Shown piece after piece: positions 25,682 through 32,371 of a DNA stretch of 45,432 nt. The notes beneath the pieces were generated by a model. The model did not search any database. It was not told where the DNA came from and worked only from the letters and a program-made list of their open reading frames with translations. The first letter of the stretch is position 1; each line of letters starts with the position of its first letter. Position numbers and translations under genes: made by a program. The DNA lies in assembly GCA_051715525.1 (NCBI GenBank), contig JBPXJX010000250.1, positions 1-45,432 of the forward strand, in the 5' to 3' direction. This DNA is from Bacteroidales bacterium. Lineage in GTDB: Bacteria; Bacteroidota; Bacteroidia; Bacteroidales; Tenuifilaceae.

Positions 25682-26140
25682 ATGAATGCTCGTTTTATTA
25701 AATTAACACTACTAATAGTGCTCGGCAATATCTGTTCAGCATTAAACGCACAATCCTTTCAGGCAAAATACGCATACGATGCCAATGGGAACCGCATATT
25801 AGCCAACATTATCTACTTGAGCACAAACGCCCCGAACAATGCGCCAGTTAAGGTGGAGGAGTCACTTAAAATCGGCGAGTCACAGGAATTGAAAGTCAAT
25901 ATCTACCCCAACCCAACCAAGGGTGACCTTCGTGTTGATATTGAAGGTGGCACTGGTAACCTGTTCGATAACCCCAATAATGCAATCAAGGTTTGGGATA
26001 TGCAGGGTAAACTTGTCGTTGCTATTACATCTATTGGAGCAAGCAATCGGGTTGACCTTAACCAATTCGCCAAGGGTGCTTACATTATGCACATCATTTT
26101 AAAGGGGGAGACCAAAACCTACAAAATTCTCAAAGATTAA
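25682..26140 (+). CDS. Mini-protein: Sec signal peptide + single YD repeat + T9SS type-A C-terminal sorting domain
   Basis: Contains MNARFIKLTLLIVLGNICSALNAQ, then KYAYDANGNRILANI, then VNIYPNPTKGDLRVDIE...IKVWDMQGKLV...LNQFAKGAYIMHIILKGETKTYKILKD. It ends 15 nt before the Rhs ATG. Confidence 0.8.
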   Translation: MNARFIKLTLLIVLGNICSALNAQSFQAKYAYDANGNRILANIIYLSTNAPNNAPVKVEESLKIGESQELKVNIYPNPTKGDLRVDIEGGTGNLFDNPNNAIKVWDMQGKLVVAITSIGASNRVDLNQFAKGAYIMHIILKGETKTYKILKD

Positions 26141-26155
26141 ACAGCGCTACAAATA

Positions 26156-32100: not shown

Positions 32101-32371
32101 TGATGCAGCAGGCGTAGTCAGGTATGTAGGGATAACTGAAAGGAATGCCACTGTAAGATTTGGAGAGCATGCAGTTTCAATAGGAACTGGTCGAGAATTT
32201 TTGAAGTATAGTGTAATTGATGGAGCAACAGGATTATCAAGAATAGATGCCCGAATTTGGGAGCAGACTTTAATCAACCAGTATGGCTTAGAAAAGAATG
32301 GAGGTTTGCTTTTAAATAAAGTTAACTCCATAGCACCTAGGTACTGGTGGTTGTATGGCATAACCCCTTAA
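26156..32371 (+). CDS. Rhs/YD-repeat polymorphic toxin, Tc-toxin BC-like (SpvB N-domain + FG-GAP propeller + YD shell + Rhs core + C-terminal toxin)
   Basis: Signal peptide [20 protein letters not shown]. SpvB/TcaC motif [43 protein letters not shown]. Seven Dx(D/N)xDGxxD repeats and more than 15 YD repeats (for example [30 protein letters not shown]). Rhs core [34 protein letters not shown]...[17 protein letters not shown]. Confidence 0.93.
   Translation: [2071 protein letters not shown]
27120..28330 (+). other. FG-GAP/VCBS-type repeat region of the Rhs protein (putative 7-blade propeller)
   Basis: The seven repeats read [71 protein letters not shown] and [12 protein letters not shown]. 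Confidence 0.75.
31290..31471 (+). other. Rhs repeat-associated core ending in the DPSGY (DPxGL-type) boundary motif
   Basis: [60 protein letters not shown]. Everything downstream is the variable C-terminal region. Confidence 0.85.
31616..31864 (+). repeat. Homology block copy 1 (inside the main Rhs C-terminal region)
   Basis: Aligns by eye over ~249 nt with 33802-34050, at roughly 85-90% overall identity. There are only 5 mismatches in the first 100 nt. It encodes [32 protein letters not shown]...LLPMPYG...GYGD. Confidence 0.9.
32070..32368 (+). other. C-terminal toxin tip with GIY-YIG/URI-nuclease-like motifs
   Basis: [29 protein letters not shown] fits Y-x11-YVG, with R nine residues after the G and RxxxH. 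It is followed by [13 protein letters not shown] (Glu) and LLNKVNSI (Asn). Confidence 0.6.

Follow-up and report, generated by a model that had tools for sequence, protein, structure and literature searches.

How might an Rhs toxin with an apparent Sec signal peptide but without its own sorting domain reach the cell surface? The question is raised by a locus on contig JBPXJX010000250.1 of a Bacteroidales bacterium (Tenuifilaceae; assembly GCA_051715525.1), of which positions 1-45,432 make up the stretch of DNA analyzed here (the window). In this window, a gene encoding a protein of 152 amino acids, hereafter the mini-protein, lies directly upstream of a gene encoding an Rhs polymorphic toxin of 2071 amino acids. 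Judging from its domains and its recurrent place beside such genes, the mini-protein probably links the Rhs toxin with a type IX secretion system, the T9SS. The more specific proposal, that it is a dedicated trans-acting T9SS sorting and anchoring subunit of the adjacent toxin, is one that we regard as evenly balanced, and it is a role for which we infer binding, export, and killing.

Architecture of the mini-protein

The first-pass annotation of this DNA had described the mini-protein as a protein in which a signal peptide and a linker precede a C-terminal domain (CTD) of the T9SS type A. Sequence inspection, the family models TIGR04183 and PF18962, and a predicted structure all agree with this description (Table 1). 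By sequence, the N terminus follows the classical n-h-c pattern of signal peptides, which is kept across the family of homologs described below. Residues 74-151 match TIGR04183 with 49.3 bits (curated cut-off 23; E 3.6e-13) and PF18962 with 45.8 bits (curated cut-off 27; E 7.7e-12). An AlphaFold2 (AF2) model, based on a 113-sequence alignment, has a mean pLDDT (predicted local distance difference test) of 83 and comprises a helix (residues 3-20), a beta-hairpin (28-32/38-43), a low-confidence segment (44-55), and a beta-sandwich (56-151). An additional strand, residues 56-64, precedes the canonical CTD, and pLDDT exceeds 90 for most of residues 71-152. The best match of the model in the PDB, as identified by Foldseek, is the CTD of NucA in the T9SS translocon (8glk_D; TM 0.79), with 8qb1, 8glj_D, and 5m11 as further matches and the CTDs of mirolase, FspA, and PorZ among the matches. 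By sequence and fold, the mini-protein falls among the type-A CTD cargo proteins.

Between the signal peptide and the linker lies a YD-type beta-hairpin with the motif KYAYDANGNRILANI / KYAYDANGNR. The first-pass annotation had called it a canonical YD repeat. This holds at the level of the motif, of which YDxxGN is invariant, but not at the level of curated models: residues 15-39 score 13 bits against TIGR01643 (E 0.11), short of the cut-off of 15.8, and the Pfam family RHS_repeat (PF05593) does not match residues 24-73 even at E <= 10. The mini-protein has a single YD repeat and no tandem repeats that could make a shell. It is therefore not a YD-repeat protein by curated thresholds, and YD-like at motif level.

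A large family with an invariant hairpin

Conservation of the hairpin was examined in an alignment of 38 divergent family members with a mean column identity of 25%, in which Y32, D33, G36, N37, P76, N77, P78, and Y134 are invariant. Conservation of YDxxGN in these members is far beyond chance and equals that of the PNP motif of the CTD. In a larger alignment of 113 members, D33, G36, N37, P76, P78, and Y134 are invariant, and Y32, R38, and Q24, the last of these at the mature N terminus, are near-invariant. Such a pattern indicates that the hairpin is under selection as strong as that on the sorting domain. TIGR04183 matches all 38 members of the first alignment and TIGR01643 only 8 of them at E <= 1 (best 1e-4). 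Across the family, the hairpin usually starts 2-8 residues past the predicted signal-peptide cleavage site, and the linker between hairpin and CTD varies in sequence as well as in length (21-72 residues), being rich in E, P, T, S, A, and D.

Among the indexed candidates of a 90%-clustered protein collection, 274 clusters matched the profile at E <= 1e-10, and their source names are limited to "T9SS type A sorting domain-containing protein," "hypothetical protein," and "YD repeat-containing protein." When 1.84 billion representatives were searched exhaustively with the profile, 702 clusters at 50% identity were obtained (E <= 1e-30), nearly all of them 135-195 amino acids long and matching the profile from end to end.

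The top matches of the exhaustive search were three giant proteins, P0207 (3404 amino acids), P0208 (3694 amino acids), and P0225 (2977 amino acids); here and below, P labels denote proteins from homolog searches and L labels surveyed loci. Each has 14-24 repeated matches confined to profile positions 91-138, which are a part of the CTD sandwich. These are repeat proteins, and they were ruled out as family members.

Architecture of the Rhs toxin and its spacing from the mini-protein gene

The 2071-amino-acid protein is a polymorphic toxin of the Rhs type whose front end is TcB-like: an SpvB N-terminal domain and an FG-GAP propeller region are followed by a shell of RHS repeats (PF05593 E 4.5e-20), an Rhs-associated core, and a C-terminal tip (Table 1). 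As the first-pass annotation had noted, its N terminus resembles a signal peptide and its C terminus is taken up by the toxin tip, here some 300 residues that begin after the core at residues 1705-1771, so that the topological argument against a CTD of its own stands. The tip (residues 1776-2071) matched no family in domain-model searches.

The coordinates and a terminator scan likewise agree with the earlier description of the junction as a same-strand gap of 15 nucleotides with no hairpin. The spacer contains no terminator and is too short for a hairpin, and the sole convincing terminators of the region come after position 34901. The two genes share a reading frame, with one TAA and 15 nucleotides between them. 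This appears to be coincidental, because every phase occurs among the gaps in related loci (13, 25, and 4 nucleotides are examples).

Among the open reading frames (ORFs) of the window of at least 100 amino acids, family searches identified no PAAR, VgrG, Hcp, or TcA, in keeping with what had been reported from the sequence, nor do the gene lists inspected for related loci include a TcA-type family; a TcA gene may still lie elsewhere in the genome. The Rhs protein of the window is not a type VI secretion system (T6SS) effector. The T9SS core operon that had been placed in the window is present, with genes for PorP/SprF and GldKLMN.

Association of mini-protein and Rhs genes

Whether the pairing extends to relatives, a check proposed in the first-pass annotation, was addressed from both sides. 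For the Rhs side, a GTDB set with one genome per species was scanned with patterns from the N terminus of the window Rhs protein, which gave 80 loci (59 labeled Bacteroidota, 1 Chlorobiota, and 20 Proteobacteria). A hidden Markov model (HMM) of the mini-protein, made from small ORFs 5' of Rhs genes, was run on the six-frame ORFs of all survey loci, and only loci whose upstream sequence reaches 2.6 kb or more were counted, namely 38 from Bacteroidota (including the one from Chlorobiota) and 17 from Proteobacteria. A family member lies within 2.6 kb 5' of the Rhs gene on the same strand in 34 of the 38 Bacteroidota loci and is directly adjacent (<=400 nucleotides) in 27 of them. By contrast, both counts are zero for the 17 proteobacterial loci. 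The difference between the two groups (Fisher p = 9e-11) is a between-clade contrast and phylogenetically non-independent.

For the mini-protein side, we inspected ten members, most of them picked for their long contigs. All ten are followed 7-70 nucleotides downstream, on the same strand, by a large gene encoding 1400-2155 amino acids, or, for P0002, 307 amino acids up to the contig end. Seven of the ten neighbors have SpvB, FG-GAP, and RHS families on record; an eighth, that of P0002, aligns to the N terminus of the window Rhs protein, and the remaining two run off contig ends. The association of mini-protein and Rhs genes is thus near-obligate in both directions.

One metagenome-assembled genome (MAG), WQTS01, contains five paralogous Rhs modules (L023, L024, L025, L031, and L036), each with its own mini-protein gene and variant of the hairpin; a frameshift interrupts the mini-protein gene of L036, leaving it in two parts. 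Among 85 Rhs homologs, PF18962 was found in none, which indicates that there is no natural fusion of an Rhs protein to a CTD in this set, and no fusion of a mini-protein to an Rhs protein was found.

Two proteobacterial loci, both from Herbaspirillum, have a small ORF of 155-163 amino acids directly 5' of the SpvB/Rhs homolog (L048 7398-7889 and L050 7456-7923). The N terminus of these ORFs is pseudopilin-like (EGFTYLAALFLVAI), a reading which, if true, would hint at another secretion-system adaptor in Proteobacteria. Pfam gives it no support, and we rejected these ORFs as a proteobacterial counterpart of the mini-protein.

A fibre-like third partner and natural fusions

Many loci contain an additional gene encoding a fibre-like protein of 196-670 amino acids with a signal peptide and with YadA_head repeats or Peptidase_S74 (endosialidase chaperone). 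Most of these proteins have no Pfam match, and they share a C-terminal region (...NKHLPxIPSAxEV...LLQKIEELTLY...). The gene is located either 5' of the mini-protein gene or between the mini-protein and Rhs genes, and it is not present in the window. In two loci the hairpin and CTD form part of a larger protein (L053 and L072; Table 1). Because these two proteins carry domains before the hairpin, the hairpin need not sit at the mature N terminus. The fusion in L053 of a fibre-like protein to a hairpin and CTD further suggests that the fibre-like protein and the hairpin-CTD unit act in one assembly. Since many loci, the window among them, combine a mini-protein gene with an Rhs gene in the absence of a fibre gene, Rhs is the only constant partner.

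A possible mechanism and its alternatives

Published structures of other Rhs proteins have the toxin tip enclosed in the shell. With the toxin tip at the C terminus of the Rhs protein, a C-terminal sorting domain would have to come in trans. In the mechanism that we propose, Sec would export both proteins to the periplasm, as the signal peptides visible in their sequences suggest. The YD-type hairpin at the mature N terminus of the mini-protein would bind the Rhs protein, most likely by strand addition to the edge of the YD sheet, with the FG-GAP propeller as an alternative site. The type-A CTD of the mini-protein would then engage the T9SS and bring the complex to the cell surface. There, the flexible linker would hold the toxin on the cell or on vesicles, either through a lipopolysaccharide link formed after CTD cleavage or through a CTD that is kept, as may be expected from knowledge of type-A CTD cargo. 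Such an arrangement would answer a problem of topology, in that a T9SS signal needs an exposed C-terminal domain and the C terminus of Rhs is an enclosed tip behind a self-cleaving core. In many relatives, the fibre-like protein (Peptidase_S74/YadA_head) would join as a third component and might serve to bind the target. When run against the window Rhs protein, the hairpin HMM gave weak, motif-level matches to five YD repeats (independent E 0.06-1), from which no docking site can be located. The general form of the proposal, that the T9SS exports or displays cargo lacking a CTD by means of a partner that plugs a YD hairpin into the YD sheet of the cargo and supplies the CTD in trans, we advance tentatively, leaning somewhat against it.

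Several points weigh against the proposed role. No mini-protein gene is found near the Rhs gene in L027, L034, and L035, which amount to ~10% of the Bacteroidota loci, and the sole copy is 3' of the Rhs gene in L074 as well as in L013 and L044, for which less upstream sequence is available. The pairing may be less general over the whole phylum than in our sample, whose loci are mostly from Bacteroidales MAGs and were retrieved by close-relative patterns. If cut right before the CTD, the mature mini-protein would be very short (~40-50 residues). Its hairpin could bind a fibre protein, a target-cell component, or a part of the T9SS instead of the Rhs shell. Rhs and TcB-TcC cocoons and the SprA translocon lumen are of about the same width, and export of a folded cocoon of 228 kDa is therefore not obviously possible. 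Finally, no T9SS cargo that is exported by the CTD of a partner was found in the literature searched, with most subscription journals outside its coverage.

No folded cocoon would have to pass the translocon if the mini-protein were an ordinary T9SS cargo that presents a lipopolysaccharide-anchored hairpin on the surface, and if the Rhs protein left the periplasm otherwise, by vesicles or lysis, to be captured by the hairpin without any T9SS transport of Rhs. The evidence from synteny and conservation fits such surface docking equally. However, neither the module nor the window encodes another export route, and capture after release would be inefficient by comparison with periplasmic assembly of two proteins that already share that compartment; we consider this unlikely. 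We assign a similarly low probability to the possibility that the hairpin binds the fibre-like protein, an outer-membrane component of the T9SS, or a target-cell structure, so that the mini-protein would be a fibre anchor or an adhesin without contact with the Rhs shell. A fibre-like gene is often adjacent (L001, L012, L085, L087, and L093; L014, L016, L018, L041, and L069), and L053 fuses a fibre to a hairpin and CTD, but the window and many loci lack a fibre gene, the constant partner is Rhs, and a YD-type hairpin is a structural unit of the Rhs shell itself.

It is also conceivable, if improbable, that the mini-protein acts in the periplasm as a cap or chaperone, with its hairpin covering the sheet edge of the newly made Rhs shell against aggregation or premature opening, and its CTD removing the cap or timing its release. 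A hairpin is the right kind of element for capping a beta-edge, and in T6SS systems, EagR-type accessory proteins, whose genes lie 5' of rhs, function as chaperones. Yet a complete type-A CTD in every member would be a costly means of cap disposal, and the fusion of fibre, hairpin, and CTD would be left unexplained. Least credible of all, to the point of near dismissal, is that the ORF is a decayed piece of an Rhs or CTD gene, or a T9SS cargo gene that came to lie here by chance. It is small, it has one repeat, and the member in the window scores below the curated YD-repeat cut-off. Against this stand the ~700 clusters at 50% identity, their uniform length, intact signal peptides, and invariant hairpin motif, and the near-obligate synteny in both directions. 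On these grounds we ruled out a decayed remnant, which the first-pass annotation had named as an outcome that would undo its proposal.

Relation to known systems

In Tc toxins, the TcB and TcC chains join edge to edge into one YD sheet. The window Rhs protein is similar in that a TcB-like SpvB N terminus and FG-GAP propeller are fused to an Rhs shell and core, and by analogy the two-chain cocoon is a precedent, in structural terms, for providing a YD element in trans. Here, however, the trans element would be a lone hairpin with a T9SS sorting domain, the window has no TcA translocator gene, and both proteins have probable Sec signal peptides. The T6SS Rhs effectors resemble our module in that a small accessory gene right 5' of rhs ties, or in our module would tie, the toxin to a given secretion machine. 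The module in the window differs from them by the absence of PAAR, VgrG, and Hcp and by the T9SS CTD on the accessory protein; since its proteins have probable signal peptides, a two-step route through the periplasm is suggested, unlike for T6SS Rhs effectors.

With other type-A CTD cargo, such as NucA, RgpB, and mirolase, the mini-protein shares a C-terminal beta-sandwich sorting domain and, probably, a signal peptide. It differs from them in that its own passenger is only ~40-50 residues of hairpin and linker, with no enzyme or adhesin domain, and in that the proposed passenger is a separate polypeptide. Another small, conserved CTD-containing protein is PorA (PGN_0123) of Porphyromonas gingivalis, which is likewise described as having a role other than that of enzyme cargo; it functions in PorXY-SigP signalling, and neither a YD hairpin nor a link to Rhs genes is reported for it (PMC7712824). 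The TANFOR polymorphic toxins of Bacteroidetes, which carry signal peptides and lack a CTD of their own, lie in gene neighborhoods where CTD proteins are overrepresented, and they have been hypothesized to be T9SS substrates (Jana, Salomon & Bosis 2020, PMC7073777). They are built on another scaffold, their neighbors are large CTD proteins with SprB repeats, and no small adaptor that matches the scaffold was described (PMC7073777).

In Apibacter, SpvB/TcdB-type rhs genes adjoin genes for type-A sorting-domain proteins, and a link to the T9SS was inferred (Steele & Moran 2021, PMC8125069). Adjacency, an Rhs protein without PAAR, and the inference of T9SS involvement are common to that report and ours. 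It consists of one paragraph on one genus and describes neither the architecture of the small protein with its hairpin, nor the family and how it is distributed, nor the fibre partner or any mechanism (PMC8125069). The novelty that the first-pass annotation had suggested is thus partial: the adjacency and the T9SS inference were already in the Apibacter paper, whereas no description of the hairpin, family, distribution, fibre partner, or trans-CTD mechanism was found, most subscription journals lying outside coverage. Within the same coverage, no T9SS-exported Rhs toxin was found, and the Apibacter remark and the TANFOR hypothesis come nearest. A role of the T9SS in interbacterial antagonism has been a hypothesis so far (PMC7073777, PMC8125069).

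Gene neighborhood

Positions of all features are given in Table 1. The gene 5' of the mini-protein gene occupies positions 22902-25424 on the minus strand, and the intergenic region between the two is a probable promoter region of the module; a sigma-70-type scan is uninformative for Bacteroidota promoters. The divergent segment at 22274-25424 (minus strand) encodes an extracytoplasmic function (ECF)-type sigma factor of 187 amino acids and an 840-amino-acid CarboxypepD_reg/DUF5686 protein.

The positions of the genes 3' of the Rhs gene are typical for immunity genes and an orphan tip, to which we assign putative functions from sequence. The 178-amino-acid ORF that overlaps the end of the Rhs gene (32347-32883) has only a weak match to Imm26 (E 0.015, under the cut-off). 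The first 93 amino acids of the orphan tip are 81% identical to Rhs residues ~1821-1913, and this common stretch is likely a recombination handle. The ORF that follows the orphan tip (34515-34901) matches NF053699 with E 5.1e-07 and 29.7 bits, under the cut-off of 100. The orphan cassette array, at 33082-34901, includes a 212-amino-acid protein with a signal peptide and a weak TPR-like (MamA) match, and a 123-amino-acid DUF559 (endonuclease-like) ORF lies just past the terminators of the module (35156-35527, plus strand).

Another candidate T9SS cargo is encoded in the window at 11340-12638 (minus strand), a protein of 432 amino acids with Por_Secre_tail at residues 358-429 and no further family match. 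Genes of the PorP/SprF family are located 1-17 kb from the module in 3 of ~12 contexts (L089 489-1550, minus strand; L091 1989-4622; and window 2314-4665), accompanied by GldK in L091 and in the window. This proximity may be due to chance, because PorP/SprF genes are multi-copy.

Table 1. Features of the toxin module and of related loci. Positions refer to the window unless residues or a locus label are given.
Feature	Position	Strand	Description
Mini-protein gene	25682-26140	+	152 aa: signal peptide, YD-type hairpin, linker, type-A T9SS CTD
Mini-protein signal peptide	25682-25750	+	Residues 1-23, ...SALNA/QS; from sequence and AF2 helix 3-20
YD-type beta-hairpin	25760-25810	+	Residues 27-43, QAKYAYDANGNRILANI
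Linker	25811-25900	+	Residues 44-73, rich in E/P/T/S/A
Type-A T9SS CTD	25901-26137	+	Residues 74-152
Intergenic region 5' of mini-protein gene	25425-25681		AT-rich, between divergent genes
Spacer between mini-protein and Rhs genes	26141-26155		15 nt; stop 26138-26140, Rhs ATG 26156
Rhs polymorphic toxin gene	26156-32371	+	2071 aa
Rhs signal peptide	Residues 1-19		Signal-peptide-like by sequence
Rhs SpvB N-terminal domain	From residue 41		PF03534 E 4.7e-18
Rhs FG-GAP propeller region	Best match residues 510-577		FG-GAP_3, PF13517 E 9.4e-18
Rhs YD shell	RHS_core model residues 1039-1386		Best single RHS-repeat match 1268-1304; YD motifs to ~1680
Rhs-associated core	Residues 1705-1771		TIGR03696 E 6.9e-17; DPSGY at 1768
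Rhs C-terminal toxin tip	31481-32368	+	Residues 1776-2071, ~300 aa
Probable cognate immunity gene	32347-32883	+	Overlaps Rhs gene end; alternative start ATG 32380
Orphan toxin tip	33787-34509	+	240 aa
Probable immunity gene for orphan tip	34515-34901	+	128 aa, Bfi1-family-like
Two strong terminator-like hairpins	34957-34981, 35051-35077	+	Close toxin module
T9SS core operon	2314-8486	+	PorP/SprF, GldK, GldL, GldM, GldN; 17 kb upstream
Fibre-like gene 5' of mini-protein gene	L001 1139-2650; L012 6051-7148; L085 9388-9987; L087 9439-10029; L093 7389-7988		
Fibre-like gene between mini-protein and Rhs genes	L014 1432-3444; L016 6603-7622; L018 950-1798; L041 5259-6710; L069 6519-7499		
L053 fusion	L053 6032-7744		570 aa: signal peptide, YadA_head repeats, fibre-family C-terminal region, hairpin VQFTYDECGNRVSR, CTD
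L072 fusion	L072 632-1690		352 aa: unassigned N-terminal domain, hairpin, CTD

Implications

In conclusion, we report a family of small proteins that has no name of its own and, with ~700 clusters at 50% identity, merits one. The mini-protein provides a genetic handle on the export of signal-peptide-bearing, PAAR-less Rhs toxins of Bacteroidota and on the T9SS as a system of antagonism. It is tiny, conserved, and separable, and its four invariant residues and its CTD give a direct experimental entry. If a CTD is indeed supplied in trans, the substrate rules of the T9SS would widen, such that CTDs alone would no longer predict cargo, and a new mode by which Rhs cocoons connect with a secretion machine would be added. 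The hairpin would then also be a short peptide tag for loading or displaying Rhs-type containers. SpvB/FG-GAP/Rhs cocoons would be T9SS-dependent toxins, acting by contact or borne by vesicles, and the module would represent the first T9SS route for Rhs delivery and the first documented "piggyback" substrate of the T9SS.

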